In this document: positions 2,926-40,436 of the stretch, one piece after another
Numbering within the stretch: the stretch's first letter is position 1
Layout: each line of letters begins with the position of its first letter
Assembly (NCBI GenBank): GCA_049515535.1
Contig: JBEKTZ010000007.1
Span: 124,001-188,000, forward strand
Length of the DNA: 64,000 nucleotides
DNA from: Candidatus Aminicenantales bacterium
Lineage (GTDB): Bacteria > Acidobacteriota > Aminicenantia > Aminicenantales > UBA4085
Direction: 5' to 3'
The notes under the pieces: generated by a model
Told to the model about the DNA's origin: nothing
Database searches by the model: none
Seen by the model: the letters and a program-made list of their open reading frames with translations, nothing else
Position numbers and translations under genes: made by a program

Positions 2926-4023
2926 CTATATTTTTTCTCCTAATGTGAGAAAGAACGTCGCGCCTTTGTCCAGCTCCGCTTCCGCCCACACACGCCCGCC
3001 GTGGCGGTGAACGATCCGCTGGACAATAGCCAGCCCGACGCCCGTGCCTTCGTAGTCTTCGGACCGGTGCAACCTCTGGAAGACGCCGAACAGCTTGTCG
3101 ACATAGCGCATATCGAAACCGACGCCGTTGTCGCGAACGAAGAATACATTCTCCCCGTCCTTGCGGATGCAACCGACTTCGATGACCGCCGGATTGCGCT
3201 TACGGGTGAATTTCAGCGCGTTGGAGAGCAGGTTGACGAAGACCTGCCTCAACAACGCGCGGTCGCCTTGGCAGGATGGCAGGTTGCCGACCGTTAACTT
3301 CACATGACGTCCGTCCTGCTCGCTCCGCAGCAGATCCCACGCTTCGCGGACGAGCGCGGCCGGCTTAACTTGGTCTTTGATCATTGCCTGCCGGCCAAGG
3401 TGCGAGAATGCGAGCAGATCGTCCACGAGATGGCCCATTTGAAGCGTGTTCGAGCGGACCAGGCTGAGGTAGCGTTGTGCGTCCGGCGGCAGTTGGGGCG
3501 CGTATTTATCGAGCAGGATGCGCGAGAATCCGTCAACAGCCCTCAGCGGGGCGCGTAAATCGTGGGACACCGAATAGGTAAACGCTTCCAGTTCCTTGTT
3601 GGCTGCTTCCAGCTCTTTCTGGTAATTGCTTATTAGGTCGTTGTAGGCCTTGACCTTTAGCAGGGACCGGACCCGGGCTAAAAGCTCTATCTTATCAACA
3701 GGCGATGAAATAAAATCATCACAACCGGCTTCAATTCCCTTTACCCGATCTTCCGTATCCCGCAGTACGGTAACCAAGATTATCGGAAGCAGTCGATGTG
3801 TATTATCTTGCCTGACCCTGCGGGTAACTTCAAAACCATCAATGCCGGGCATCAATACGTCCAGCAGAATCAGATCGATTTGCTCACCAGAAAGTTTCCC
3901 CAGCGCTTCTTCACCGTTTGCCGCCTTGACAATTTCATAACCCTGCGGAACAAGATATGCTTCGAGAAGTTCAATGTTTTGGGGCTCGTCATCAACAACT
4001 AAGATTACTGGTTTGTCCTTCAT
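2926..4023 (-). CDS. Hybrid REC-histidine kinase
   Basis: VVDDE/DVLMP receiver; H-box SHDLRAPL, N-box NLLSNALKF, DNGVG, GTGVGL. Confidence 0.93.
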   Translation of the reverse strand: MKDKPVILVVDDEPQNIELLEAYLVPQGYEIVKAANGEEALGKLSGEQIDLILLDVLMPGIDGFEVTRRVRQDNTHRLLPIILVTVLRDTEDRVKGIEAGCDDFISSPVDKIELLARVRSLLKVKAYNDLISNYQKELEAANKELEAFTYSVSHDLRAPLRAVDGFSRILLDKYAPQLPPDAQRYLSLVRSNTLQMGHLVDDLLAFSHLGRQAMIKDQVKPAALVREAWDLLRSEQDGRHVKLTVGNLPSCQGDRALLRQVFVNLLSNALKFTRKRNPAVIEVGCIRKDGENVFFVRDNGVGFDMRYVDKLFGVFQRLHRSEDYEGTGVGLAIVQRIVHRHGGRVWAEAELDKGATFFLTLGEKI

Positions 4024-4066
4024 CCACTATCTCTTTTGAATTTAACTTTTCAACATATTAGAAAAC

Positions 4067-4432
4067 TCACTTAATAAATTGACTAATTTCTTTCGCAAAA
4101 GTGCGCGTATTTATCGGCTTACCTATAAATCCGGTGTTAGTTATGGCTTTTATCTCTTCTCTGCCTTCTGCCATTACAGAAGCAGTCACAAAAACAATGG
4201 GAATATCGCGTGTCTCTTTGTCTTGACGTAATATCCTGGCGGCTTCGGAACCACGCATATCTGGAAGCCGCATATCCATAATTATAATATCCGGTTTTTC
4301 TTTCCTGGCAATGGCAATTCCCCCGGCAGCATTTTCCGCTTCAAACACTTCAAAGCCAGCGACCTCCAAAAGGTCTTTTTCCAGTGTCAGATTGTTTTCA
4401 TTATCATCGACAACTAATGCTTTCTTCCTCAT
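4067..4432 (-). CDS. Single-domain response regulator (DivK/CheY-like)
   Basis: VVDDN, MDMRLP, VTA, GKP; 121 aa. Confidence 0.9.
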   Translation of the reverse strand: MRKKALVVDDNENNLTLEKDLLEVAGFEVFEAENAAGGIAIARKEKPDIIIMDMRLPDMRGSEAARILRQDKETRDIPIVFVTASVMAEGREEIKAITNTGFIGKPINTRTFAKEISQFIK

Positions 4433-4433
4433 C

Positions 4434-6020
4434 TCACACCATCCTCCTGGATATAATAGGCAAAGTAAACCGGACCGCGGTGCCTCTATTTAGCCCCTCT
4501 GATTCTACAGAAAGCTTCCCGCCGTGCAGCTCAACCAGCTTTTTAGAGAGCGGTAAACCGAGTCCGGTCCCTTCAGTTACCCGGGAATATGCGGTATCGA
4601 CACGGAAAAAACCTTCAAATATTTTCTCCATGTTTTCAGGTGCGATACCAACTCCCGTATCCCAGACCACTACTTCTATCTCGGAATCGGCTTTCTTCGC
4701 CCGCATGCCAATTTTACCACCCTCGGGGGTAAATTTAACTGCGTTTGAAAGCAGGTTGTAAATTATCTCTTTTGTCTTGAGCTCATCTGCCTCAATATTC
4801 GGCAGATCTTCGGCTATTTCAAGCAACATTTCAATCTTCTTTTTGCTGACCATATCCGCTACCAGCATTGAAATATCATTTAATAGGTTTTTCATGGGTA
4901 AGCTGGATAATGTCAGCTTCATCTTTCCGGCTTCAACTTTTGCCATATCAAGTATCTGATTTATCAGCAAGAGAAGGTGCTTTCCGCTGGTTAAAACATT
5001 ATTAACGTATTTCTTCTGCTTCTCATTAAGCGGTCCGAAAGTCTCGTCGCATAATACCTCAGAAAAACCGTTAATAGAGTTAAGCGGGGTCCTAAGCTCA
5101 TGCGACATGTTGGCCAAAAATTCAGATTTTACCTTAGCGGTGCGTTTTAACTCGGCGGCCAACTCCTTTAACGCTTCATGGGCTTTTTCCAGACCGTTTT
5201 CTATCTCCCTGCGCTCGGTGATATCCTCGATGGTCAGGAGGATGATCCGCTCTTTGCCCAACACTCTTTGAATCTGCCGGGCATTCAAAAGCATTATGCG
5301 CCTGCCAATGGTCGCAAAATCGTGTTCCACCTCATAGTTATCAAAGGTTGCCTTTTGGGGAAGGATGGTTTCCAGCAGTTCCCGCAGCTTGGGGATATTC
5401 CACTGTTTATTGCCCAGGTCATAAATAAGCTGTCCCACGGTCTCTTTGGGGTTTACCTTAAAGACTTCATAGAAGGAGCGGCTGACGGAGACCACCCTTA
5501 AATCTTGATCCAGAGCGATCAAGGGTTCACGTATGGTGTTGATGATGCTCTCTGAGTATTCGCGGGCTGCATCTTCGGATATTTTAGTTGCGGCCAGTTC
5601 TTTGCGGGCTTTTTCCAACCCATTTTCTATCTCCCTACGCTCGGTGATATCCTCGATGGCCAGGAGGATGATCCGCTCTTTGCCCAACACTCTTTGAATC
5701 TGCCGGGCATTCAAAAGCATAATGCGCTTGCCGATGGTGGCAAAATCGTGTTCAACCTCATAGTCATCAAAGGTTGTCTTTTGGGGAAGGATGGTTTCCA
5801 GCAGCTCCCGCAGCTTGGGAATATCCCACTGTTTATTGCCCAGGTCATAAATAAGCTGTCCCACAGTCTCTTCAGGTTTTACCTTAAAGAATTCATAGAA
5901 GGAGCGGCTGGCGGTGACCACCCTTAGATCTTGATCCAGAGCGATTAAGGGTTCACGCACGGTGTTGATGATGCTCTCGGCGTATTCCAGGGATTGGATG
6001 ATGGTTTTATTCCGGAACAT
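4434..6020 (-). CDS. PAS-PAS sensor histidine kinase
   Basis: Two near-identical PAS repeats; SHELRTPL, NLLSNAVKF, DTGVG, GTGLGL. Confidence 0.93.
   Translation of the reverse strand: MFRNKTIIQSLEYAESIINTVREPLIALDQDLRVVTASRSFYEFFKVKPEETVGQLIYDLGNKQWDIPKLRELLETILPQKTTFDDYEVEHDFATIGKRIMLLNARQIQRVLGKERIILLAIEDITERREIENGLEKARKELAATKISEDAAREYSESIINTIREPLIALDQDLRVVSVSRSFYEVFKVNPKETVGQLIYDLGNKQWNIPKLRELLETILPQKATFDNYEVEHDFATIGRRIMLLNARQIQRVLGKERIILLTIEDITERREIENGLEKAHEALKELAAELKRTAKVKSEFLANMSHELRTPLNSINGFSEVLCDETFGPLNEKQKKYVNNVLTSGKHLLLLINQILDMAKVEAGKMKLTLSSLPMKNLLNDISMLVADMVSKKKIEMLLEIAEDLPNIEADELKTKEIIYNLLSNAVKFTPEGGKIGMRAKKADSEIEVVVWDTGVGIAPENMEKIFEGFFRVDTAYSRVTEGTGLGLPLSKKLVELHGGKLSVESEGLNRGTAVRFTLPIISRRMV
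5180..5987. repeat. Intragenic duplication of a PAS module, period 426 nt (boundaries approximate)
   Basis: gatgatgctc at 5541 and 5967; ttttctatc at 5197 and 5623. Confidence 0.9.
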
Positions 6021-17949: not shown

Positions 17950-18009
17950 CTTTTCACTCCTATTTGATCGGTCAATCTTATGATTTTGGGGAAAGTACAA
18001 GTAGAATGA

Positions 18010-18038
18010 ATTATAAAAAAGGCTTCGCGGGCTGTCAA
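18010..18038 (-). promoter_or_regulatory. Consensus sigma70 promoter for the pst operon
   Basis: TTGACA-N17-TATAAT on the minus strand. Confidence 0.8.
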
Positions 18039-18196
18039 GGGCGAGGGGATGAGCGCAACGCGGGGCGTCGGCCGGATCATTGTTCCGGACGTCCGGCAAA
18101 TCGACCGAAAGATAATTGACTTCTCGTTTATCTCGGAATCACCTGATCTTAAAATATTCCGCCAACTCCTCTGAATCGAAGCTACAAAAATAGTTC

Positions 18197-18256
18197 TTGA
18201 CAAAGCCGGCTAATCAATGTATGCTTGCGTAGCAAGCATACATTGATTAGCCGGCT
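18197..18256 (+). promoter_or_regulatory. Promoter with perfect 25-3-25 inverted repeat (putative AbiEi operator 1)
   Basis: TTGACA at 18197, TATGCT at 18220; arms 18204-18228 and 18232-18256. Confidence 0.75.
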
Positions 18257-18310
18257 CAATACGGATATCTTTACTTATAAAACGAGCTAATTTTTATTCG
18301 TTTATTCTTC

Positions 18311-18371
18311 TTGACAATAGGATGGTGAGCATGTTAGGCTTGCTACGCAAGCCTAACATGCTCACCATCCT
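18311..18371 (+). promoter_or_regulatory. Promoter with perfect 25-3-25 inverted repeat (putative AbiEi operator 2)
   Basis: TTGACA at 18311, TGnTAGGCT; arms 18319-18343 and 18347-18371. Confidence 0.75.
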
Positions 18372-18394
18372 TAGATCCGAACTTATATCCTCGA

Positions 18395-19372
18395 TTGTCA
18401 AAAAATAATATTCCTTTTCAAAAATCCTTTCCTCCAAGATGGGGAGATTTCTTAAAAGCTCTAATGGATCGTCTATCAAAAACGACTGCATCATTGCCTA
18501 GCGTCCGCTGTTTAACTGAAAGCACACTTTCACATGTGTTCGAGGAAATACGAACAAATCTAAGCCTGCCCTCAACGTATCCGAGCGGTACGAAAATCCT
18601 AGATCTTTTAATGTCTATGGGAATAGCAACTCGAATCCCGATTGAAGGAACGCTCACATCCAAGCCATCAAAAAAGTTTTATATATTTGGAATACGCGGA
18701 TCACAAGAAATAAACGTCGAGCCTCTGGAATTATTACAGGCTTATCATCAATCGGGTGTAATTTGCTATTTTAGCGCGTTATCATTTTTGAATCTGACAT
18801 CTCAATTGGCGACTCATCATCACATCGCTATTTTGACGCGACCGAAGATTAAAGCAAAATACGATCTAGCGAAAATATTACCAGAGACAATTCGGCAACA
18901 GAAAAAAAACGAACGATCTAGACTCGGAACTTCCGTCTTCTCTTATCAAGGTATCTCTTATTATTCGACCAAACGAGTAAAAAAATCCATTCCCGGCATT
19001 AAAACCCGAAGCCTATCTCCATGGACAAAAATTCGAATAACGACAACGGAACAAACTCTTCTTGATACTCTACAATACCCTTTCCACTGTGGAGGGCCAG
19101 AAGCCATATTCGAGGCATGGGAGAGAAAAATAAATCAAATTGATGATGAATTAATTCTCGATTACCTAAAAGAAATTCAAATAGCCCCTCTCGCAAGACG
19201 CCTCGGAGCTATATTTGAGCTTTATGATCATCACCCTACAAATAGGCTTAGTTCATTCTTGAGAAAATTGATGAGGCGATTTATGACGGAATCCGAATTC
19301 AAGACAATTTCACTTCTAAGAGGAATTGATTATTCGCGTATAAATACTAATTGGAATGTTTCTATACCATAA
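18395..19372 (+). CDS. abiEi: Type IV toxin-antitoxin antitoxin, AbiEi family (start uncertain)
   Basis: VICYFSAL, ITTTEQTLLDTLQYPFHCGG, RRLG; directly upstream of an AbiEii-like gene. Confidence 0.8.
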   Translation: MSKNNIPFQKSFPPRWGDFLKALMDRLSKTTASLPSVRCLTESTLSHVFEEIRTNLSLPSTYPSGTKILDLLMSMGIATRIPIEGTLTSKPSKKFYIFGIRGSQEINVEPLELLQAYHQSGVICYFSALSFLNLTSQLATHHHIAILTRPKIKAKYDLAKILPETIRQQKKNERSRLGTSVFSYQGISYYSTKRVKKSIPGIKTRSLSPWTKIRITTTEQTLLDTLQYPFHCGGPEAIFEAWERKINQIDDELILDYLKEIQIAPLARRLGAIFELYDHHPTNRLSSFLRKLMRRFMTESEFKTISLLRGIDYSRINTNWNVSIP

Positions 19373-19373
19373 A

Positions 19374-20261
19374 ATGAATGCCGGCAAACGGGAAGATTGG
19401 AAATTCGAAGTTATATCGCAAATCCTTTTTGCTTTAGCGGAAAACGAAAACATCAAAGAGAATCTCATTTTTAAAGGAGCACTGATTTTAAATCAATATC
19501 TGTCTTCCCCAAGAAAATCTTTAGATATCGATTCGAATCTTACCAGTGCCTTTATCAAAAGCTATCCGCGCCTTGAACAGCAAAAATCTTTCCTTAAAAT
19601 TAATATTGAACAAGCTATTTCTCGTCACTTTGAAAAGCAGGATCCCGTAAGATTCGAACTGAAAAATCTAAAGATCGAGCATATGCCCCGAACCTCCCAT
19701 CCACATGGATGGGATGGTTTCTATATTACAGTTTCCATATCGGATCACGAAAACTCCGGTGTCCGTGGGTTGCCGAATCTGACGATCGATGTAGTGGCGC
19801 CAGAGACTCTTTCGGAATACTCGTTGACTAAGATGCGTCTTGGTAAATCGAAGATTGTCGCATATACGTTAGAGCGAATAGCAGGCGAAAAAGCCCGAGC
19901 GTTTTTAAGTTCTCTTCGGACATATAAGGACAAGATCGGGAAGCGGGAGAAAGCGATCCGTGTTAGAGATCTTTATGATCTCGCTCAAATCGTGCGTGTA
20001 CGGAAATTATCGGACAACACTTTCTGGAAAATTGCCGGGAATGAATTCAAGCTTTCATGTGAATCGCGGTTTGTTGATTGCGTTGGGGTTAGTAGCTTTC
20101 GGGAAGAATGGACTTTAGCGGAAGAACTTTACAAAAAAAGCCCGACTATCCCAAAAGATATCCCTTTTAAAGAAGTAGAGACTTTCATTATAAATATCTC
20201 GAAATATTGGGAAAAAACCGGGATAATTCCGTTTTCGTTCCCCTTGAGCATCCTAGAATAA
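19374..20261 (+). CDS. abiEii: Type IV toxin-antitoxin nucleotidyltransferase toxin, AbiEii family
   Basis: LIFKGALIL, RKSLDID, GEK, RVRDLYDL. Confidence 0.85.
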   Translation: MNAGKREDWKFEVISQILFALAENENIKENLIFKGALILNQYLSSPRKSLDIDSNLTSAFIKSYPRLEQQKSFLKINIEQAISRHFEKQDPVRFELKNLKIEHMPRTSHPHGWDGFYITVSISDHENSGVRGLPNLTIDVVAPETLSEYSLTKMRLGKSKIVAYTLERIAGEKARAFLSSLRTYKDKIGKREKAIRVRDLYDLAQIVRVRKLSDNTFWKIAGNEFKLSCESRFVDCVGVSSFREEWTLAEELYKKSPTIPKDIPFKEVETFIINISKYWEKTGIIPFSFPLSILE

Positions 20262-25404: not shown

Positions 25405-26127
25405 TCAACGATTCAGGCGTTCCAGGGTTTGGAACAGAACCTCGTATTCAGGCCGGTCCGTGGTGCTCTGGCCGATGTACTTGAACTGACAGATGCCCTT
25501 CTTGTCCACGATGAACACGCTGGTGATGCACTGGTCGACCTTGCTTCCGCCCCATTCCGTGGCGAAAAGGCCGAGGCCCTTGGACACTTTGCGGTCGGCA
25601 TCGATGAGCAGAGGGAAGGGCGTCGGGACTTTGCCTTTTTCCAGACTGAGCTCCTTGGGATACGACGTGCGCCATCTCTCCATCCGGGCCTTGCCTTGTT
25701 CATCGAGCTTGGCGGGATCGGCGGGATGCTTCCACTCCTTGATTTTCTGCAGCTGGTCGGGATTGTCCTCGACCCATTTCTTGACGACGTCGGCCGCGTA
25801 GGGGAAGACCAAAACGATCTCAACGTCGTATTTTTTTCGGATTTCGGATGTCTTCTCGAGATCGACGAGCTCCGCGTATTTGTAGTTGTCGATCGTGCAC
25901 CAGCGGGCTTCACCGGCGAATCCCCGCGGGAAGATCAACATCACGTTCTTTCCCTTCAAAGACGACAAAGCGAATGTCCCTCCCTGATAGGTCGGCAGCG
26001 CGAAATCCGGCATCGGCCGTCCGATCGTCACCGGCTTGATTTCGTCAGCCTGGGAAAAGAGGAACGTGCCGGCCGCTGCAAGGAACACGGCGATCAGCCC
26101 CGCGGCGATCATGTGATTTCTCTTCAT
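25405..26127 (-). CDS. Exported AhpC/TSA redoxin-like protein
   Basis: Signal peptide, MPDFALP, LSSLKGK, WC, FPLLID, FIVDKKG. Confidence 0.8.
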   Translation of the reverse strand: MKRNHMIAAGLIAVFLAAAGTFLFSQADEIKPVTIGRPMPDFALPTYQGGTFALSSLKGKNVMLIFPRGFAGEARWCTIDNYKYAELVDLEKTSEIRKKYDVEIVLVFPYAADVVKKWVEDNPDQLQKIKEWKHPADPAKLDEQGKARMERWRTSYPKELSLEKGKVPTPFPLLIDADRKVSKGLGLFATEWGGSKVDQCITSVFIVDKKGICQFKYIGQSTTDRPEYEVLFQTLERLNR

Positions 26128-26258: not shown

Positions 26259-26445
26259 GCCATCGTCGACTTACTTTACGTATAATAGACCCGGGACCGG
26301 TCCCAAGGCAAGCCGGCCGTCGTCTGACCGTATTGCGGTCAGGGCCGTCGTCCGCGAAATAGGCCGCCGGAACGCGCTGGTTCGGTTTTAATCTTGTGGA
26401 ATTGCCCTCGTCGTTTTGTTAAAATGCGAACAGAGATGTTGTCCG

Positions 26446-26847
26446 TTGAAAAAACTCACCATCACGGCCGATCTTTCCGAAATCGATAACATCCGCCAAT
26501 TTCTCAAGGACAGCCTTCGGGGACTCCCGATTTCCGAGGAAAACTATTTCAAGATCGAGCTGGCCATCGTCGAAATCTGCGTCAACGTGATCCGCTATGG
26601 GTATCCGGAGCGCCGGGGGGAGATTGACATCGCCATCCGGGACGCCGGGGGGCGCATCGCGATCGAGATCCGGGATTCCGGCGTACGATTTGATCCGGGC
26701 AGCGTCCCGAAGCCCGACATCGACGAAGTCATCGCGGCCGGTGGGAAAGGCAGCCTGGGGATCTATCTCGTCCGCCAGATCATGGACGAGTTCGACTACC
26801 GCTGGGAAAACGGCGAGAATATCCTCACTCTCGTGAAGACGATTTAA
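26446..26847 (+). CDS. RsbW/SpoIIAB-like anti-sigma factor Ser kinase
   Basis: ELAIVEICVNVIRYG, IRDSG..FDP, GSLGIYLV..IMDE. Confidence 0.88.
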   Translation: MKKLTITADLSEIDNIRQFLKDSLRGLPISEENYFKIELAIVEICVNVIRYGYPERRGEIDIAIRDAGGRIAIEIRDSGVRFDPGSVPKPDIDEVIAAGGKGSLGIYLVRQIMDEFDYRWENGENILTLVKTI

Positions 26848-26929: not shown

Positions 26930-27763
26930 CTATTTTTCGTAGATGACGCTCTCTTCGCCGTTCTTTTTGATTAGCTTATCCATCTCCGCGAGGACCAAAT
27001 CCTTGCGGATCATGACGCATTTGATCTCCTCATCCGTGAGATATTCTCCGACCGCGGTCTTGATCTGTTCGTACGTCAGCGCTTTGATTTTCTCGAAGAA
27101 GGCCTTGGGCAGCTCTTTCATGACCATCGGCCCTTCCGGATGTTTCTCCGTGTAGATCAATTGCTTGATGAATTTCCCCGTCGTCCGGAAACTCCTGGAG
27201 TGATCGATGAGGATCATCCGCCAATCCGGAAGAACGATCAGGTAATTGTCTAGATGACGGTCTTCGTTGGCGATCAGATTATCGAAAGCCCGCTGCAAAT
27301 AGAGCGCCCGGTTGTAATAGAAGACGCGATAGGAAGGCTTTTTGATGTTTTCTTCGGTGATTTTTTTGAGCGATTTCGTGTCGTCTATCCATAGCTGCAA
27401 TGAGCCGCGGTTACCGTTGAACCGCCGCTCGATGGTGACCGGGACCATGCCGAGGCCCAGGATCTTGTCCATTTCATAGCCGGCGACTTCGTATTTCCAA
27501 CTGTCGATATATCCCGCGGGTCTCCCCGAGACGTCTTTCCAGAGGCCTTTTTTCGTGACATCGCCCTGCTTGAGGGTCAGGGTCCACGGATGCGTCACGG
27601 CTGCCTCGGTGATTTGCTTGCTGTCGATGATCTCCGCCGTCTTCAGGAATTCTTCCCATTTGGCCCGGTCAGCCACTTCTTCGGGCTTTAACTGAGCGAA
27701 GGATCGAACGCAGAGACCCAGCACGCCGCACGCGAAAAGGACGACAAAAAGCTTCTTCTTCAT
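26930..27763 (-). CDS. Exported atypical kinase (PI4K2/Fam20-like fold)
   Basis: Signal peptide; LWK, EVAGYEMDKILGLGMVPVT, GSLQLW, FDNLIANEDRHLDN, IDHSRSF. Confidence 0.8.
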   Translation of the reverse strand: MKKKLFVVLFACGVLGLCVRSFAQLKPEEVADRAKWEEFLKTAEIIDSKQITEAAVTHPWTLTLKQGDVTKKGLWKDVSGRPAGYIDSWKYEVAGYEMDKILGLGMVPVTIERRFNGNRGSLQLWIDDTKSLKKITEENIKKPSYRVFYYNRALYLQRAFDNLIANEDRHLDNYLIVLPDWRMILIDHSRSFRTTGKFIKQLIYTEKHPEGPMVMKELPKAFFEKIKALTYEQIKTAVGEYLTDEEIKCVMIRKDLVLAEMDKLIKKNGEESVIYEK

Positions 27764-27775
27764 TCTCTCTCCTCC

Positions 27776-28612
27776 TTAATACAAAACGTTCGCCTCACCG
27801 TTTTTCTTGATCATGTCCGCGATCTCGGCCGTGATGAGCGGGATCCGGGCGATGATCGCGCGGATTTCGTCGTCGGTCAGGTACGGCCCGACGGCCTGTT
27901 TGATGACGGCGAAGTTCAGGGCTTTGATTTTCTCGAAAAGAGCGCGGGGAACTCGCTGGATGAGAAACGAGCCGCCGTCGTCCTTCCTGACGATCCCCTT
28001 GGCCCCGTACATCAGCCGCCGGGAGTATTTCCCGCCGGCTTGGAAGGCACGGGAATGGTCGATGAGAATCATCCGCCAATCATCGGTGAACAGGACATTC
28101 TGCTGAGTCCGGTCCGCGTTGGCGATCAGACTATCCCAGAGCCGGGCAATATATTTCATGCGGTCGGTCTGGGCGATCGCCTGATCGGGGATTTGCTCGT
28201 TGTTTTCTTGCATCTTGAGAAGGCTGGTTCTGTTGTCGGCCCACAGGGACAGATCTCCCTTTTTTCCGTTGAATTCCCGCTCGATCGCGGGAGGGATCAT
28301 ATTCAGGCCGATGAGCTTGTCGAGCCGATAGGCCGCAATTTCATGTTTCCAGCTGTCGAGAATATCGTCGATTTTTTCATCGGGATTCTTCCAGGCCGCC
28401 CTTTTTTGGACGTCGCCCTTTTGGAGATAGATCCTCCAGGGAGACGTGACGCCTTCCCCGATCGGTTCGCTCTTGACGATATCGGCCGCTTTCATGAATT
28501 CTTCCCACTGTTCGCGCAGGGCGATATCCGCGGGTTTGAACTGGGCCTGGGCGTAAGGGCCCGAGGCCAGCAGCCATGACGCCAAGACGAGCCCAAAGGT
28601 TTTTGTTCTCAT
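27776..28612 (-). CDS. Exported atypical kinase (PI4K2/Fam20-like fold)
   Basis: Signal peptide ending AQA; AWK, EIAAYRLDKLIGLNMIPP, WDSLIANADRTQQN, IDHSRAF. Confidence 0.8.
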   Translation of the reverse strand: MRTKTFGLVLASWLLASGPYAQAQFKPADIALREQWEEFMKAADIVKSEPIGEGVTSPWRIYLQKGDVQKRAAWKNPDEKIDDILDSWKHEIAAYRLDKLIGLNMIPPAIEREFNGKKGDLSLWADNRTSLLKMQENNEQIPDQAIAQTDRMKYIARLWDSLIANADRTQQNVLFTDDWRMILIDHSRAFQAGGKYSRRLMYGAKGIVRKDDGGSFLIQRVPRALFEKIKALNFAVIKQAVGPYLTDDEIRAIIARIPLITAEIADMIKKNGEANVLY

Positions 28613-28731
28613 AGCCCGATCTCGTTTCGGCCGATTCCCCTCCTCCAAGATGCCCTCAGTTTAATACCGGAGAATCGAGAAAATCAAGAGAGAATAAGAA
28701 TTTTTTATTGACCTGCGGAAACGCTGAATCC

Positions 28732-30138
28732 TTATAAAGCCGGCGCCGCCGCGGATTTCGCCTTGATTTTTTTGTATTCGCGAATCAGCAAAAAGCCGAC
28801 GAGAATCCAGATCAGGGTGACGGCCACGTTCAATTTGGCGAAGCTCTCGAGGGAGAGGCTCAAGTAATTGACCCCGATAAAGAGAGTCAGGGCGGCCATG
28901 GCGTCCCCGCCCCTATAGAAAAACGTGTCCGCCGCGGCCTTGCCCTTGTATTTCTCTTCCCTCGAGGTGACGAGAAATAAGGCGCCCTTGGTCGTGTTCA
29001 TGAGGGAATAATCGATGCCGTTTTCGAAGCCTTTCACCCATTTGACCAGGACCAGAGACGCCCCCAGGCTGACCAGGCTGTATCCGCCCAGGGCGATGAA
29101 CGGCAGGAACAGGAGCGCTCCGCTCACCCCGACCCATTTGAAAATCCGGGACACCAGAAAGAGCTGGACGAGCAAGGCCACCAGATTGTAGATGAATTGA
29201 TAATCCGTATAGACGCTGCCGATGAATTGCGTTTTGTCCAATCCCCCCATCGTCCCCGCTTTCTCAGCCTGAGTGGCCGCATTATCGACGGCTCTGCTCC
29301 AAATGGTTTCTCCCGTATAATTGACGTAATTGAGGAAAAACATGAGCAGCGCGTAAAAAAGGAGATACTTGCTCTTGAAGATCAGGCGAAATCCGCCCCC
29401 CTTTTTCAGGGGTTTTTCCTTGGCTTTCTCCTCTTCGACGGTTTTCGCGTCCAAAGCCTGGGCCTTCCTTTGGAATCGGTTGATCTCCCGTTTATGCACG
29501 GCGATCGTCAGGAAGATGCAGACTCCCAGGAGGGCGGCCGTCATCAACATCATGATATAGGCGAAATGGGTCCCCAGGGGACCGATGACCCATTTCGCGA
29601 TTCGCGTTCCGAAGAGGGCCCCCGCGGTCTGTCCGAAGGCGACCAGGGGAAACAGCCTTTTCCCCGCTTCCTCGGTATAGATGTCGTTGGCGAAGCCCCA
29701 GAACTGGGCGATGACCATGACGTTGAAAATGCCGACCCAGATGAAAAAGATGATGCCCATCGTGCCCATGGGCATGCCCCAAAGATGGAAGAGATAGAAC
29801 AGGCCGAGATTGGACATGAAAAAGAGAGTGACCCAGGAGATGAGAAGATGGCGCGGAACTTTGGACGCCAGGAGGCTGAATCCCTTGATCACGAAAATGA
29901 ACAGAATGGCCTGAGCCCCGGCGAGATAGCTTCGGACGAGCGGACCCATGGACGAAATCACGAGGGCTTCCCGAACGGGTTTGATGAGATAATACGCCAG
30001 AAGCAAAAGAAAGACGTTGAGGGTCAGGAGAATGACGGTGATGGTTTCTCCGGGATGAATTTCCGTGAAAATTTTAAGAGCGCGATGGCCGATTCCGGGA
30101 GATCTTGACTCCGGCCTCATGGCGACGGCGTTGTCCAT
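28732..30138 (-). CDS. NTT/TLC (Npt1/Npt2) nucleotide translocase, stand-alone
   Basis: YYLIKPVREAL, QFWGFANDIY..EAGKRLFP, DYSLMN, EKYKGK...DTFFYRGGD; about 12 hydrophobic helices. Confidence 0.85.
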   Translation of the reverse strand: MDNAVAMRPESRSPGIGHRALKIFTEIHPGETITVILLTLNVFLLLLAYYLIKPVREALVISSMGPLVRSYLAGAQAILFIFVIKGFSLLASKVPRHLLISWVTLFFMSNLGLFYLFHLWGMPMGTMGIIFFIWVGIFNVMVIAQFWGFANDIYTEEAGKRLFPLVAFGQTAGALFGTRIAKWVIGPLGTHFAYIMMLMTAALLGVCIFLTIAVHKREINRFQRKAQALDAKTVEEEKAKEKPLKKGGGFRLIFKSKYLLFYALLMFFLNYVNYTGETIWSRAVDNAATQAEKAGTMGGLDKTQFIGSVYTDYQFIYNLVALLVQLFLVSRIFKWVGVSGALLFLPFIALGGYSLVSLGASLVLVKWVKGFENGIDYSLMNTTKGALFLVTSREEKYKGKAAADTFFYRGGDAMAALTLFIGVNYLSLSLESFAKLNVAVTLIWILVGFLLIREYKKIKAKSAAAPAL

Positions 30139-30154
30139 GGCTATTCCCCTCCTT

Positions 30155-30964
30155 TCATTTTATTTCCAAGTCGAAAATGACGGCGGATTCGCCCTTGTCC
30201 TTTATCGAATTCCGGAGTTTTTCAATGATGATGATCATGCGACCGAGCAGCGCCTTGATCTCCTGGGCGTTGAGATAGGGCTTGAGCTTGCTTTCGACGT
30301 CGAGCGGCCGGATATCGAGCAGAGATCGATAGAGGCGCCTGGAGCAGCGGGCGATCGCGGCTTCAGGCAACAGTTCCGGGATGGTTTCGAAAGCTTCGGC
30401 GAAATCCACCCGGCAGACGCGCCAGGTGTCCTTGTGGATCAAGATGTCTTTCAAAGATCGTTTGCAATAGGTCAGATTTTCAAAGATGCTGAGTTCTTCC
30501 AGGGCGTTCTCGAACGCTTTCGGATCGGGGGGGGCGATTTTCTTCGCCCGGCGGTCGCTTTCCGAGAGGCAGCTCTCGAGGAAGAGCTGGAGCGATCCCT
30601 TGCGCTTGTCGATTTCCCTCTCGACGACGGGCGGGACGATGTCGAGGCCGAGGAGCTTGGCCAGCTCATACGCCGCAAGCTCGTATTTATAACACATGAC
30701 GATGATGCTCGGCCGGGGTTGGTCGACGTATTTGAAGATTCCCCTGAGGGCGCTTTTCCCGTCATTGAGGCTGACGATCCAAGGGGCGCCGCGCCCGGAT
30801 GCCGCGCCTTTTTGGACGGCGACGGCCTTCGCGCTTTTCAGATAATCTTCCAGCCCCTTTTGCTGGGCGTTGGCCTGGCCGGCCGCGCGGAGCAGAGGGA
30901 CCGCGAGGCCCATCAGGAGAAAACCGAGGACGACGAAAACTCCGAGATCTCTCTTGTCCATCAT
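30155..30964 (-). CDS. Exported paralogue of the atypical kinases, probable pseudokinase
   Basis: Signal peptide; IFK, ELAAYELAKLLGLDIVPP, GSLQLF retained; NxDR replaced by YCKR, IDH by VDF. Confidence 0.72.
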   Translation of the reverse strand: MMDKRDLGVFVVLGFLLMGLAVPLLRAAGQANAQQKGLEDYLKSAKAVAVQKGAASGRGAPWIVSLNDGKSALRGIFKYVDQPRPSIIVMCYKYELAAYELAKLLGLDIVPPVVEREIDKRKGSLQLFLESCLSESDRRAKKIAPPDPKAFENALEELSIFENLTYCKRSLKDILIHKDTWRVCRVDFAEAFETIPELLPEAAIARCSRRLYRSLLDIRPLDVESKLKPYLNAQEIKALLGRMIIIIEKLRNSIKDKGESAVIFDLEIK

Positions 30965-31953
30965 TCCTTCCCCCAAACGGCGAAATGCTCGCCTTCGATG
31001 ATCAAAGCGCTCAGGTGGCCGCCATAAACGGACGATATCCCCGTATCCACGATCCAGACCTTCCCGCCGAATCGGGACATGTTCTCCCAAACGAGCACCG
31101 GTGTGTGAGCGACGATGATGTGCTTCGCGCCGAGATTGGCCAGAATTTGATCGATCTGGGCCTCGTCGGCCTGCGCGGCCAGGTCCCGGTTCCACAGCGG
31201 CCCGTCTTCGGCGAACAGGATTTTCGGCCGGAATATGTCTCCCCGGAAAGATTTCTTGAATTCATCATGATAAAGGGCGTTGATCTCCTCGAGCTTCATC
31301 TTCGAATAAAATTCGTTGATCCCGCCGTGGACGAAGACGACGTCGTTGATTTTGATCACGGCGCTTTGATCGGTGAGCCAGCGGCCGTAGAGGAGGTTGA
31401 AATTCTCGGTGTAAACGTCCTTGGCCTCCTGCTCTTTCATGAGGGCCTCCCAGAACGCGTTGATGTCCCCCCGGCCGCCATTTTTCTTGCCGAATTCCTT
31501 TTCCTTGTCCCGCCGGTATTTGTCCGGCAGGAAAGAGACGAACTGCGGGACGGTGACGTAATCCTGGAAATTGAACACAAACCCCGTGATGTTCATTTCT
31601 TCGTGATTGCCGAGGATAACATGGATTTGCCCGCCGGCCGCGGCGGCCTCGGTTTCGAGCTTCCGGAGCAGACCGAGGATCTTCCTGGCTTCGTCGCCGC
31701 GATCCATGATATCGCCCATTTGGACGAGGTGCGTCTTGTCGCCCGTCCAATGGAGGTCGCCGTCCACGAGGCGGGTCCCCCTGAGAATCTTGACGAAGTG
31801 ATCGTAGTCTCCGTGCAGATCTCCGATCGCGACGACCTTTTCGATCCCCGTCCAAACGCATTGCGAATCCGCGGCGGACAGGGGAAAACTTACGAGCAGA
31901 CCGAGGAGGCCCAATAATAGGAGGCTTGGAAGAAAACGGCGAAACCATCCCAT
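30961..31953 (-). CDS. Exported metallophosphoesterase (Shewanella-like PPP phosphatase)
   Basis: Signal peptide; GDLHG, GDIMDRG, GNHE, HGG, GPLWNR, AHT, VDTG. Confidence 0.88.
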   Translation of the reverse strand: MGWFRRFLPSLLLLGLLGLLVSFPLSAADSQCVWTGIEKVVAIGDLHGDYDHFVKILRGTRLVDGDLHWTGDKTHLVQMGDIMDRGDEARKILGLLRKLETEAAAAGGQIHVILGNHEEMNITGFVFNFQDYVTVPQFVSFLPDKYRRDKEKEFGKKNGGRGDINAFWEALMKEQEAKDVYTENFNLLYGRWLTDQSAVIKINDVVFVHGGINEFYSKMKLEEINALYHDEFKKSFRGDIFRPKILFAEDGPLWNRDLAAQADEAQIDQILANLGAKHIIVAHTPVLVWENMSRFGGKVWIVDTGISSVYGGHLSALIIEGEHFAVWGKE

Positions 31954-32032
31954 TAGGCTTATAATAATTTAATGAGAGGATTAGTCAAGGGCTGACCGTA
32001 ATACACTACGGTCAGCCGTAAGGGCGTTTGAC

Positions 32033-32139
32033 CCGTTCGCCTCTGCTAAGCCCCGCCTTTCAAGGCGGGGACGAGAAGCGAGGCTCAGGGTTAACCCCGA
32101 ATAAGCCCCGGCATTCATGCCGGGGAGTCGATGGTTGAC
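32033..32139. mobile_element. 107-nt double-hairpin mini-element bounded by TTGAC
   Basis: TTGAC at 32028 and 32135; hairpins ccccgcctt-tc-aaggcgggg and ccccggcat-tc-atgccgggg. Confidence 0.65.
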
Positions 32140-32191
32140 TATTTATTCGCGAAATATTATCTTGTTAAAAGCAAGGGAAAGGAGGGACGCC

Positions 32192-32569
32192 ATGTTTGCC
32201 CGCATGACCATCATGCCCATCAAGCTGGATCGAATCGATGAGGCCATTCGGCTTTATAAGAAAAGCGTCATTCCCGAGGCCAAAAGACAGGCGGGTTTCC
32301 TGGGCACTTGTCTTTTGACCGACCGTCAAGCCGGGAAAGGGATCGCCGTGACATTTTGGAAAGATGAAAAGACCGCCTTGGCCAACGAGGAAAGCCGCTA
32401 CTACCAGGAGCAGCTCGTGAAGTTCATCAGCCTGTTCGCCGGACCGCCGATCCGCGAAGGCTACGAAGTCAGCGTCCATTGTTTTGAGGCGCAGGCCGCG
32501 CCGAAATCCCGACGAAAAACCCCTAAGAAAACGGCGTCGGGAAAAAAAAGAACGACCCCAAGGCTATAA
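32192..32569 (+). CDS. ABM-like dimeric alpha/beta barrel protein with basic tail
   Basis: MFAR, QAGF.G, GKGIAVTFW, YEV. Confidence 0.7.
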   Translation: MFARMTIMPIKLDRIDEAIRLYKKSVIPEAKRQAGFLGTCLLTDRQAGKGIAVTFWKDEKTALANEESRYYQEQLVKFISLFAGPPIREGYEVSVHCFEAQAAPKSRRKTPKKTASGKKRTTPRL

Positions 32570-33375: not shown

Positions 33376-33723
33376 ATGGTGATCAGCAAACGAGAGAAGA
33401 ACAACGTCGTGATTTTCGATATCGACGGGGAGATCAAACGATCGGATATCACGGATATCACGCTTCATCAAATGGTCAAGGACCAGCTCGAACTGGGGAA
33501 AAAACAGATCCTTCTGAACTTCGAGAAGGTCGAGTTCATCGACAGCTTCGGCGTCGGCGAGATCCTGGCCAGCTACATTTCCACCCACAATCTGGGGGGC
33601 AAGCTCAAGCTCGCCCGGATCTCCAAGAAGCTCTTCCTGATCTTCCAGGTCACCATGCTGACCAAAGTCCTGGACATCCACGAAGAAGAAGACTCGGCCC
33701 TCCAGAGCTTCTTCAAGGATTGA
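33376..33723 (+). CDS. STAS anti-sigma factor antagonist
   Basis: LLNFEKVEFIDSFGVG with conserved phosphoacceptor Ser; 115 aa. Confidence 0.9.
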   Translation: MVISKREKNNVVIFDIDGEIKRSDITDITLHQMVKDQLELGKKQILLNFEKVEFIDSFGVGEILASYISTHNLGGKLKLARISKKLFLIFQVTMLTKVLDIHEEEDSALQSFFKD

Positions 33724-38759: not shown

Positions 38760-40436
38760 ATGGCGACATTATATATATATCCCAAGGATGGCGAGTCTTA
38801 TACCATTCCCCTGAAAGACCGGCAGGTGACGCTCGGCCGTTCGGCCGAAAACGACATCCCCATTCCCGACCCGTTCAGCTCGAGCCGCCACGCTCTCATC
38901 TTTCCCTCGGACACCGGCTACGCGGTCAGGGACAACGGCAGCAAGAACGGCACCTTCGTCAACGGCAAGAAGATCGGCGCCGCGACCGAGCTCAAAGAAG
39001 GGGACGAGATCCTCATCGGCTCGGTCCGCATTCTTTTCGACAAGGCGCTGCTGACGAACATCGAACTGACGGATGCGCCGACGGTGCAGACGAATGTCAA
39101 TACCGTCATTCCGTTCAAGGATATTTTGGCCAAGCCGACCCAGCGGACGACGATCCAGGCGACGATCCCCTTCAACGAGGTGGACCAGGTCCGGGCCGAG
39201 AACAAGATCTTTTCCGTTCTCAGCGAGGTCAGCCAGGCGCTCCTCCTGCACAAGCCTCTGGCCGAGCTCCTGGATCACATCATGGATCTCCTTTCGGTTC
39301 ACCTCACGATGGACAGGGGCGTCCTGATGCTCAAGGAAGGAAATCCCGTCCAACTGATCCCCAAGGTCATCCGGATCAACAGCAAACACCTGCAAACCCA
39401 GAAGATCCAGGTCAGCCGGAGCATCATAAACATGGCTTTTGAGCAGCATCTCGCCGTCCTGACCTCGGACGCGTTGGTCGACCCGCGATTCCAGGGCCGG
39501 GAGAGCATCATCAGCTCGGGGATCCATTCGGCGATGTGCGTTCCGCTATGGAACAACAAAGAGATCATCGGGATCATTTATGCCGATCGGATCTCGCTCC
39601 TCCAGGAATTTCGGGAGGAAGACCTGAGGCTCCTGACGTTGCTCTCCAACCTGGCCGCCGTCAAGATCGAGAACGCGTCGCTCATCGAACAGGCCATAGA
39701 AAAGGAGAAAATGGAGCGGGAGATGCAGCTGGCGGCCCAGATCCAGAAAGATTTCCTGCCCAGGACCACTCCGTCTTGCGAGAAATTCGACATCGCCGGC
39801 AAAAATGTGTCCTGCCATCAGGTCGGCGGCGACTACTATGATTTCCTCCCTATCGACCCGGGCCGCATCGGCATCACCGTGGCGGATGTTTCCGGAAAGG
39901 GCGTCAGCGCCTCCCTGCTCATGGCCTCGCTCCGGGCGGCCCTCCATTCGGAAGTCCATTCCCGCTACGAGATGGGGGCCATGTCGGCCAAGCTCAACGA
40001 CTTCGTCCAGCGCAGCTCCGCCATAAACACGTTCATCACGTTCTTCTTCTGCGAACTGAACATAGAAACGGGGGATCTGACGTTCGTCAACGCCGGCCAC
40101 AATCCTCCGCTGGTCGTCGGCCAGGACGGAAAAATGCGGACGCTGGCGAGCTCCGGGCTTTGCCTGGGGATGCTGCCGCAGATGACCTATGAGGTGAGGA
40201 AAGAAATCCTCAAACCCGGCGACATCATTCTGATGTACACGGACGGCATCACGGAAAGCCGGAGCCCGGACAATGAGGAATTCGGCGACGGACGGCTGGC
40301 CGATATCTGCCGGAGAAATAGCGGGGCGCCGGCCGGCGAGCTGATGAATGCCGTCTTTCGCGACCTGGACGACTTCACGCGGAAGGCCCCGGCGGCCGAC
40401 GATCGAACCATCGTCGTCGTCAAAAGGCTGTCCTAA
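38760..40436 (+). CDS. FHA-GAF-PP2C (SpoIIE/RsbU-like) phosphatase
   Basis: LGRS/SSRHA/SKNGT FHA; CVPL GAF; GGDYYD, DVSGKG, NAGH, YTDGITE, DD. Confidence 0.93.
   Translation: MATLYIYPKDGESYTIPLKDRQVTLGRSAENDIPIPDPFSSSRHALIFPSDTGYAVRDNGSKNGTFVNGKKIGAATELKEGDEILIGSVRILFDKALLTNIELTDAPTVQTNVNTVIPFKDILAKPTQRTTIQATIPFNEVDQVRAENKIFSVLSEVSQALLLHKPLAELLDHIMDLLSVHLTMDRGVLMLKEGNPVQLIPKVIRINSKHLQTQKIQVSRSIINMAFEQHLAVLTSDALVDPRFQGRESIISSGIHSAMCVPLWNNKEIIGIIYADRISLLQEFREEDLRLLTLLSNLAAVKIENASLIEQAIEKEKMEREMQLAAQIQKDFLPRTTPSCEKFDIAGKNVSCHQVGGDYYDFLPIDPGRIGITVADVSGKGVSASLLMASLRAALHSEVHSRYEMGAMSAKLNDFVQRSSAINTFITFFFCELNIETGDLTFVNAGHNPPLVVGQDGKMRTLASSGLCLGMLPQMTYEVRKEILKPGDIILMYTDGITESRSPDNEEFGDGRLADICRRNSGAPAGELMNAVFRDLDDFTRKAPAADDRTIVVVKRLS

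Follow-up and report, generated by a model that had tools for sequence, protein, structure and literature searches.

Why should a free-living bacterium keep kinases, a phosphatase and a 'parasite-type' nucleotide carrier in one operon? The question is raised by five genes of an uncultured Candidatus Aminicenantales bacterium (assembly GCA_049515535.1), which lie in a stretch of 64,000 nucleotides (nt) of contig JBEKTZ010000007.1 (positions 124,001 to 188,000; this whole stretch is referred to as the window, and its own numbering is used throughout). They encode a Shewanella-like ('Shelph') phosphatase, a Fam20-like pseudokinase, an NTT/TLC-family carrier and two Fam20-like kinases, KinB and KinA, and we put the chances at about even that together they form an NTT-supplied extracytoplasmic (periplasmic) phosphorylation module of a diderm bacterium. 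The gene set suggests that ATP is sent into the periplasm to phosphorylate targets there, in a compartment which is taught to be ATP-free and in which we know of no working ATP-dependent kinase system. A preliminary description of this DNA knew of no characterised example, and the literature collection searched likewise yielded no account of exported Fam20-like kinases in bacteria or of NTT-mediated ATP export to the periplasm. The five co-oriented genes which it had listed (phosphatase, kinase-like protein, NTT, kinase, kinase) were confirmed in order and in position (table below). The stop codon of the phosphatase gene overlaps the start of the pseudokinase gene as ATGA and the remaining gaps, from 5' to 3', are 16, about 83–119 and 12 nt, so the genes are packed as an operon. 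A longer GTG-initiated open reading frame (ORF) for the pseudokinase, beginning at 31195, was rejected, since it runs into the phosphatase gene and the alignment with orthologues begins at MMDKRD. The host genome (3.45 Mb, 94% complete) contains Omp85 and LpxC genes, so the host has an outer membrane and a periplasm.

Judged from their identities, KinA, KinB and the pseudokinase are paralogues (KinB shares 45% identity with KinA, the pseudokinase 28%), and the motif set that had been read in both kinases, K / ExAxYxxD..LG..VP / DxxIxNxDR..N / IDH, is present in both: KinA carries K76, E92-x-A-x-Y-x-x-D..LG..VP, D-N-L-I-A-N-E-D-R-H-L-D-N and I-D-H, and KinB the same. The catalytic set (K76, E92, D168, N173 and D187, with the signature K-E-D-R-N-D-H) is intact in both proteins, the equivalence of the Lys, the Glu, the catalytic Asp in D-R-H..N and the metal-binding Asp between KinA and Fam20 being taken from the HMMER alignment. 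Single-sequence searches gave little, with sub-threshold Pfam matches to HipA_2 and PI3_PI4_kinase for KinA and KinB, and a marginal match of KinA to Fam20B (E 0.02) among PDB sequences. A profile built from an alignment of 82 family members (A2) matched a Fam20A chain at E 3.5e-14, the Fam20 xylosylkinase of Hydra (Fam20B) at 4.4e-11, Fam20C chains at 4.8e-10 and 1.8e-09, C. elegans Fam20 at 2.8e-07 and PI4KII-alpha at 1.5e-05; its alignment with Fam20 spans the Lys strand, the E-I-A-A-Y/F..D..L helix, the D-R-H..N loop, the metal-binding Asp and a C-terminal helix. The kinase fold is likewise present in an AlphaFold2 model of KinA (predicted local distance difference test, pLDDT, 92.7; predicted template modelling score, pTM, 0.88), for which the top Foldseek matches in PDB are the Fam20 structures 5xoo, 5wrr, 5yh2, 5yh0 and 4kqa (E 6.7e-10 for 5xoo, with a query TM-score of 0.65, to 1e-08; TM-scores 0.60–0.65), followed by PI4KII and PI3K. 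None of the three paralogues matched the Fam20C family PF06702 at E <= 0.01, and its cut-off of 26.8 was passed by only 2 of 20 long KinA relatives (29.4 and 27.2); because this cut-off is missed although the A2 profile matches Fam20A, Fam20B and Fam20C, we class the family, on profile evidence, as a bacterial sister family of Fam20 and not as members of it.

The family is large, with 2407 clusters at 50% identity for KinA at E <= 0.001, 1065 at E <= 1e-10 and 54 at E <= 1e-30, and source records label the KinA relatives as Candidatus Aminicenantes or Acidobacteriota. A protein-cluster search returned only unnamed clusters of this family, plus one in which 12% of the members carry PI3_PI4_kinase. 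A very long relative labelled Bacteriovoracaceae (P0197/P0391, 1611–1612 amino acids, aa) has the kinase domain in mid-protein and no signal-like N-terminus, and passes the cut-offs of both PI3_PI4_kinase (49.2 vs. 27.1) and Fam20C (27.2). At another locus, L102 (G046:C23, 7365–12881), an acidobacterial phosphatase gene is followed by five tandem Fam20-like kinase genes, and this array is divergent from a unit of STAS, NTT-HEAT and SpoIIE genes.

The third paralogue had been described as a pseudokinase, fairly so: it lacks the catalytic Asp D168 (C-K-R in place of E-D-R), has Asp for N173 and Phe for the His, whilst its Lys and metal-binding Asp are retained. This loss (a '..DDF' signature) recurs in 48 ORFs of the 80 related loci L001–L080, where C, E, K, R or S stands at the position of the catalytic Asp, and the loop Asn is always replaced by Asp and the His that follows the metal-binding Asp by Phe; the conservation of this loss points to a maintained pseudokinase lineage. 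A predicted complex of the NTT with the mature pseudokinase (residues 33–269) scored 0.29 against a mark of 0.32, a value that speaks neither for nor against a contact.

The phosphatase is closest to the cold-active protein-tyrosine phosphatase of Shewanella (2z72, 1v73 and 2zbm; E 1e-37 to 3e-37), in a match which spans both halves of the protein, and the next PDB match is plant BSU1 at E 2e-04. Its translation contains GDLHG, GDIMDRG and GNHE, corresponding to the PPP motifs GDxHG and GDxxDRG as well as GNH(E/D) given, along with the Tyr specificity of the Shewanella enzyme, in the accessible part of PMC535813. In other lineages the phosphatase and kinase are one protein: Metallophos-kinase fusions make up 12 of the 20 long KinA relatives and occur in 25 of 80 metagenome loci, in other Acidobacteriota and in a metagenome-assembled genome (MAG) labelled Gammaproteobacteria. 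The link between phosphatase and kinase is the best supported of our inferences, and the phosphatase would reverse the mark which the kinases set. The same enzyme invites a reading in terms of nucleotide scavenging, in which the carrier imports external ATP or other nucleotides, as in intracellular parasites, whilst the exported metallophosphatase and kinase-like proteins process extracellular organophosphates. The organism was recovered from peat and sediment metagenomes, one related locus (L192) has an NPP-type phosphodiesterase beside its fusion, every characterised NTT imports nucleotides, as far as PMC5381601 is accessible, and bacterial PPP enzymes include dinucleoside tetraphosphatases according to the same part of PMC535813, ApaH-type matches being found here too. 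These ApaH matches are weak (E 4.5e-07, far under the cut-off) and the phosphatase is far nearer the protein-tyrosine phosphatase; moreover scavenging does not supply the extracellular phosphate donor that kinases require whose catalytic set is intact, and a conserved pseudokinase paralogue fits regulation better than catabolism, so that we regard scavenging as improbable. At L192 (7814–18320) the phosphodiesterase gene is located just upstream of the phosphatase-kinase fusion, and downstream of the fusion follow genes for an Omp85-family protein, a 554-aa protein without a Pfam match and then an NTT-HEAT protein; these flanking genes are possible extra components of the module.

Whether these enzymes leave the cytoplasm is the next step in the argument. 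The N-termini of all four soluble proteins, which had been described as signal-peptide-like, do have this appearance on direct reading, with a K/R-containing n-region, an uncharged run of 15–22 residues and a small-x-small site (predicted cleavage SFA/Q, AQA/Q, ANA/Q and, in the phosphatase, LSA/AD), and KinB appears signal-like from either its TTG or its ATG start. With a crude heuristic script of our own rather than a dedicated predictor, all four pass and three cytoplasmic neighbours fail, and the property is family-wide, as the script accepts 91 of 110 full-length representatives of the family, compared with 760 of 2648 (29%) background ORFs from the same genome; several of the 19 failing representatives look like mis-called starts. 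Fused phosphatase-kinase proteins also begin with signal sequences, a few family members have a lipobox-like site instead, and after the cleavage site the mature N-terminus is conserved as Q-F/L-x-P-E-E. Together these features suggest Sec-type export of the kinases, the pseudokinase and the phosphatase. It is conceivable that the hydrophobic segments are membrane anchors or start-codon artefacts, that the enzymes are cytoplasmic and that the carrier is linked to them by inherited gene order only, a reading which gains from the background rate of the heuristic and from synteny evidence that comes mostly from one phylum. We hold it to be very improbable: n-region, hydrophobic run and cleavage site come together and are followed by the conserved motif, residues 1–20 of the KinA model have a pLDDT of 56 and are outside the fold, the lipobox-like sites of the few relatives do not fit it, and even an anchor at the N-terminus would leave the domain outside if its n-region is positive. 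Nor does inherited order alone explain why kinase and carrier are repeatedly neighbours, in changing gene orders and also where the enzymes are fused. In the phosphatase the signal region (31900–31953) reads F-R-R-F-L-P-S, similar to a Tat (twin-arginine) motif, and the RR pair is absent from most relatives.

The carrier would then have to provide the phosphate donor. It passes the Pfam TLC cut-off, and Foldseek ranks 1–5 for its AlphaFold2 model (pLDDT 79.7) are all solved ATP/ADP translocators, from Chlamydia pneumoniae and Arabidopsis (9j3n, 9j3l, 9j3m, 9j3o and 9j3j; E 2.8e-11 to 1.7e-07, TM-score up to 0.75), whilst other MFS proteins begin at E 3.4e-07, about 10^4 behind the best translocator. 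Automatic annotation names its relatives 'ATP:ADP antiporter' or 'Npt1/Npt2', and such names are no test. Positive charges at both ends of the sequence suggest that both termini are cytoplasmic, so that a C-terminal HEAT domain, where present, would be cytoplasmic too. On the reading proposed here ATP would be the substrate, and transport would run outward.

The carrier is also a recurrent companion of the kinases. The host genome has only three kinase-like and only three TLC genes, and all six are within the window. The operon's 5' end is visible in 48 of 80 related MAG loci, with the NTT inside the operon in 41 of them. We sampled 401 genomes across the phylum (TLC counts include an unpublished genome, G049), of which 104 had a match to the kinase profile and 118 to TLC; 91 had both and 270 neither, the latter including situations such as that of four genomes of the window's own order, which contain no kinase and no TLC match. 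As kin genomes are not independent we also counted by family, and of the 30 families itemised for both searches 10 had both genes, three TLC only, none the kinase only and 17 neither. Other arrangements occur as well: in 15 regions with both genes (picked for having a kinase and a TLC gene on one contig, and so biased by construction), fusions or separate phosphatase and kinase genes abut NTT-HEAT genes of at least 900 aa in several orientations. Fused metagenome loci of at least 7 kb, found with a fusion alignment (A3), have an adjacent TLC gene in 8 of 16 cases, mostly a single-domain NTT which abuts or overlaps the fusion gene and is convergent, downstream in tandem or upstream. Among the matches listed (150 of 298 kinase places and 146 of 215 TLC places), at least 25 of 63 genomes, and outside the order at least 16 of 50, have a kinase and a TLC gene no more than 12 kb apart. 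The association of kinase and TLC gene is therefore recurrent and independent of arrangement, and it is frequent but not universal or obligatory.

Several observations weigh against a phosphorylation module fed by this carrier. Seven of the 48 related operons, including that of the closest relative (L001), have no NTT in the operon, 13 of the 104 kinase-bearing genomes have no TLC match, and 27 genomes have TLC without the kinase. The co-occurrence odds ratio of 70 has no control-family baseline and overstates independence, because genomes of one phylum are kin. Under a fixed rule, in which the best kinase match in each of 62 genomes outside the order was surveyed over about ±9 kb (some contigs being short), a TLC gene was nearby in only 11, a phosphatase gene in only 23 and both in eight. 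The carrier itself scores 52.6 bits against the 387.2-bit cut-off of NCBIfam TIGR00769, which makes it a distant branch and not one of the characterised clade, and its sequence matches AtNTT1 at only E 0.0017. In the part of PMC5381601 accessible to us the characterised NTTs all import, and other nucleotides and cofactors are also carried. ATP could leak away from a periplasm bounded by porins, the heuristic behind the export call passes many background ORFs, and the enzyme and transport activities of all parts are predictions.

An alternative is a real exported kinase-phosphatase pair next to NTT carriers with some other task, such as the transport of a different nucleotide or of a cofactor, or the uptake of a product of the periplasmic enzymes; the phosphate donor would then reach the kinases in another way. 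The carrier is a distant member of a family with varied substrates whose free-living representatives are uncharacterised, again within the accessible part of PMC5381601, and both the kinase genomes without TLC and the majority of best kinase matches without a TLC gene nearby are as this explanation expects. Set against it, the carrier matches ATP/ADP translocators best by structure, and the recurring adjacency calls for some functional reason. Kinases of the Fam20/PI4K fold use ATP, as family knowledge has it, and ATP- and ADP-bound structures (5wrs and 4kqb) are among the matches of KinA; we know of no alternative ATP route to the periplasm. We consider this explanation unlikely. The ATP-fed module is partly supported: of the findings that would have refuted the preliminary description, those open to computation (no signal peptides, no kinase fold, no NTT linkage in other genomes) did not turn up, and the linkage is not universal.

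In the mechanism that we propose, the two active kinases, their dead paralogue and the phosphatase would be exported by Sec into the periplasm, and the inner-membrane carrier would move cytoplasmic ATP out and ADP in, with two neighbouring NTT-HEAT carriers helping or replacing it. The exported ATP would be the phosphate donor in a compartment otherwise without one, and the kinases would phosphorylate a target in the envelope, most likely a protein, since the phosphatase is of the protein type, and possibly a glycan or a lipid. The phosphatase would remove this mark, and the pseudokinase would probably be a regulatory or scaffolding partner, as Fam20A is for Fam20C.

Features of the operon and of the flanking region, in window coordinates (aa, amino acids)
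Feature	Position	Strand	Basis
Five-gene operon	26930-31953	minus	co-oriented ORFs, tight packing
Shewanella-like ('Shelph') phosphatase of the PPP family, 330 aa, gene 1 of the operon	30961-31953	minus	Pfam Metallophos (calcineurin-like phosphoesterase) E 6.4e-15
Fam20-like pseudokinase, 269 aa, start MMDKRD	30155-30964	minus	profile A2 E 3.1e-62; no Pfam match
NTT/TLC-family carrier of 468 aa with MFS fold, lacking a HEAT domain	28732-30138	minus	PF03219 52.1 bits vs. cut-off 21
KinB, Fam20-like kinase	27776-28648 (TTG start, 290 aa) or ATG start 28612 (278 aa)	minus	profile A2 E 9.6e-91
KinA, Fam20-like kinase, 277 aa	26930-27763	minus	AlphaFold2 model, Foldseek, family profile
Intergenic region between the operon and a divergent 150-aa ORF, presumed promoter region	31954-32116		position only
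STAS-domain protein, first gene of the neighbouring operon	33376-33723	plus	Pfam STAS E 3.1e-10
NTT-HEAT fusion 1, 807 aa	33755-36178	plus	Pfam TLC E 7.8e-24 (84.8 bits), HEAT_2 E 3.7e-10
NTT-HEAT fusion 2, 832 aa	36175-38673	plus	Pfam TLC E 6.5e-15 (55.3 bits), HEAT_2 E 2.2e-12
FHA-GAF-SpoIIE (PP2C) phosphatase, cytoplasmic type	38760-40436	plus	SpoIIE E 5.4e-50, FHA E 5.3e-20, GAF E 3.6e-15
RsbW/SpoIIAB-like serine kinase, convergent with KinA	26416-26847	plus	Pfam HATPase_c_2 E 2.8e-27

The genes on either side of the operon suggest how such a carrier system might be controlled. By their domains, the STAS protein, the RsbW-like kinase and the FHA-GAF-SpoIIE phosphatase placed around the two NTT-HEAT genes are a complete partner-switching set, and this set may act on the HEAT domain, which would be the output of the switch. 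In the majority of the 80 related loci the RsbW-like gene adjoins KinA, and the STAS gene abuts NTT-HEAT in 38 of the 40 that hold NTT-HEAT; at L102 the FHA-GAF-SpoIIE architecture is again found beside NTT-HEAT and STAS, in the order SpoIIE, NTT-HEAT, STAS. NTT-HEAT proteins are described as widespread in free-living bacteria, uncharacterised and often accompanied by a cNMP-binding (cyclic nucleoside monophosphate-binding) partner in the accessible part of Major, Embley and Williams 2017 (PMC5381601).

A scan for promoters and terminators performed at chance level (three promoter-like sites vs. 2.7 expected), so the single promoter-like match in the intergenic region upstream of the operon (31988–31961, minus strand) is no evidence of a promoter. 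The divergent 150-aa ORF (32117–32569) has no Pfam match and is conserved in several relatives, with two copies in L001. An AhpC/TSA-type peroxiredoxin gene (25405–26127), the product of which has a signal-like N-terminus of its own, is kept beside the cluster in L001, L018 and L057. Among 30 neighbours from 10 diverse loci, Pfam searches revealed no fourth component that recurs and would be a candidate substrate. Elsewhere in the window the G+C content of 4001–6000 (0.45) and 18001–20000 (0.41) is well below the usual 0.55–0.62, and these stretches may be foreign or mobile DNA.

Operon and flanking genes can be drawn into one wider picture, which we offer tentatively and think rather doubtful as a whole: free-living diderms would run a reversible, ATP-fuelled phosphorylation in the periplasm, in which NTT and NTT-HEAT carriers export ATP and are gated from the cytoplasm through the HEAT domain, here by the partner-switching set and in other lineages by a cNMP sensor, whilst the Fam20-like kinases with their pseudokinase write the mark and the Shelph erases it, the bacterial family being the likely evolutionary source of the animal Fam20 kinases. 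If this were true, bacteria would have a supply line dedicated to ATP, and a cycle in which phosphate marks are written and erased outside their cytoplasm. It would give a first function to the uncharacterised NTT genes of free-living bacteria and explain why many such bacteria keep 'parasite-type' NTT and NTT-HEAT carriers, a question open since Major et al. 2017. The animal Golgi kinases would gain a bacterial sister family of 2407 clusters, with a bearing on the origin of secretory-pathway phosphorylation.

Of the known kinases, the animal Fam20 enzymes, which act in the secretory pathway (Golgi) and comprise the protein kinase Fam20C, the xylosylkinase Fam20B and the pseudokinase Fam20A, come closest. 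They give the best profile and the best fold matches of the KinA family, they have in common with it the Lys, the Glu, D-R-H..N and the Asp in the D-x-G position as well as an aligned C-terminal helix, and a signal sequence takes them to compartments outside the cytoplasm, as is predicted for the bacterial proteins. Both also have an inactive paralogue beside active ones, the pseudokinase here paralleling the Fam20A/Fam20C pairing; it has, however, lost its catalytic Asp, whereas Fam20A has a changed Glu instead. The bacterial kinases are shorter, at about 250 residues when mature, and cover by TM-score only 41–53% of the Fam20 chains, so the insertions specific to Fam20 are absent from them. 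A 2022 kinome survey terms FAM20 'eukaryotic- or Metazoa-specific' in its accessible part (PMC9758233), and in a 2021 Fam20 review (PMC7948968) the term 'bacteria' appears only in the reference list.

PI4KII (alpha and beta) is the second-best group by both profile and fold, and the Pfam PI3_PI4_kinase cut-off is exceeded by one relative of 1611 aa, but the PI4KII matches are weaker than those of Fam20, and PI4KII enzymes are cytoplasmic and palmitoylated, in contrast to operon kinases with predicted signal sequences. The phosphatase resembles the Shelphs, Shewanella PPI (1v73, 2z72) among them, in sequence, and differs in context, its gene being translationally coupled here to that of the pseudokinase and fused to a kinase in other lineages. 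In the ER/Golgi lumen (endoplasmic reticulum, ER) secretory-pathway kinases are fed by ATP exchange, the ER importer being AXER/SLC35B1, and the logic proposed for the operon is the same, a nucleotide exchanger feeding ATP to kinases topologically outside the cytoplasm; the carrier family is unrelated, and an outer membrane containing porins bounds the periplasm where a sealed membrane bounds the lumen. The NTT translocators of Chlamydia, Rickettsia and plastids are likened to the operon carrier by its Pfam TLC score above the cut-off and by the best fold matches, but the carrier is distant from the characterised ones in sequence, and its host is free-living and has its own ATP, so that an exchanger would be expected to run outward. 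The two neighbouring genes share the architecture of the NTT-HEAT clade of PMC5381601, with STAS, RsbW-like and SpoIIE genes as partners where the accessible part of that paper describes a cNMP-binding domain, and the context of exported kinases and a phosphatase in which the NTT is found here is not mentioned in that part.

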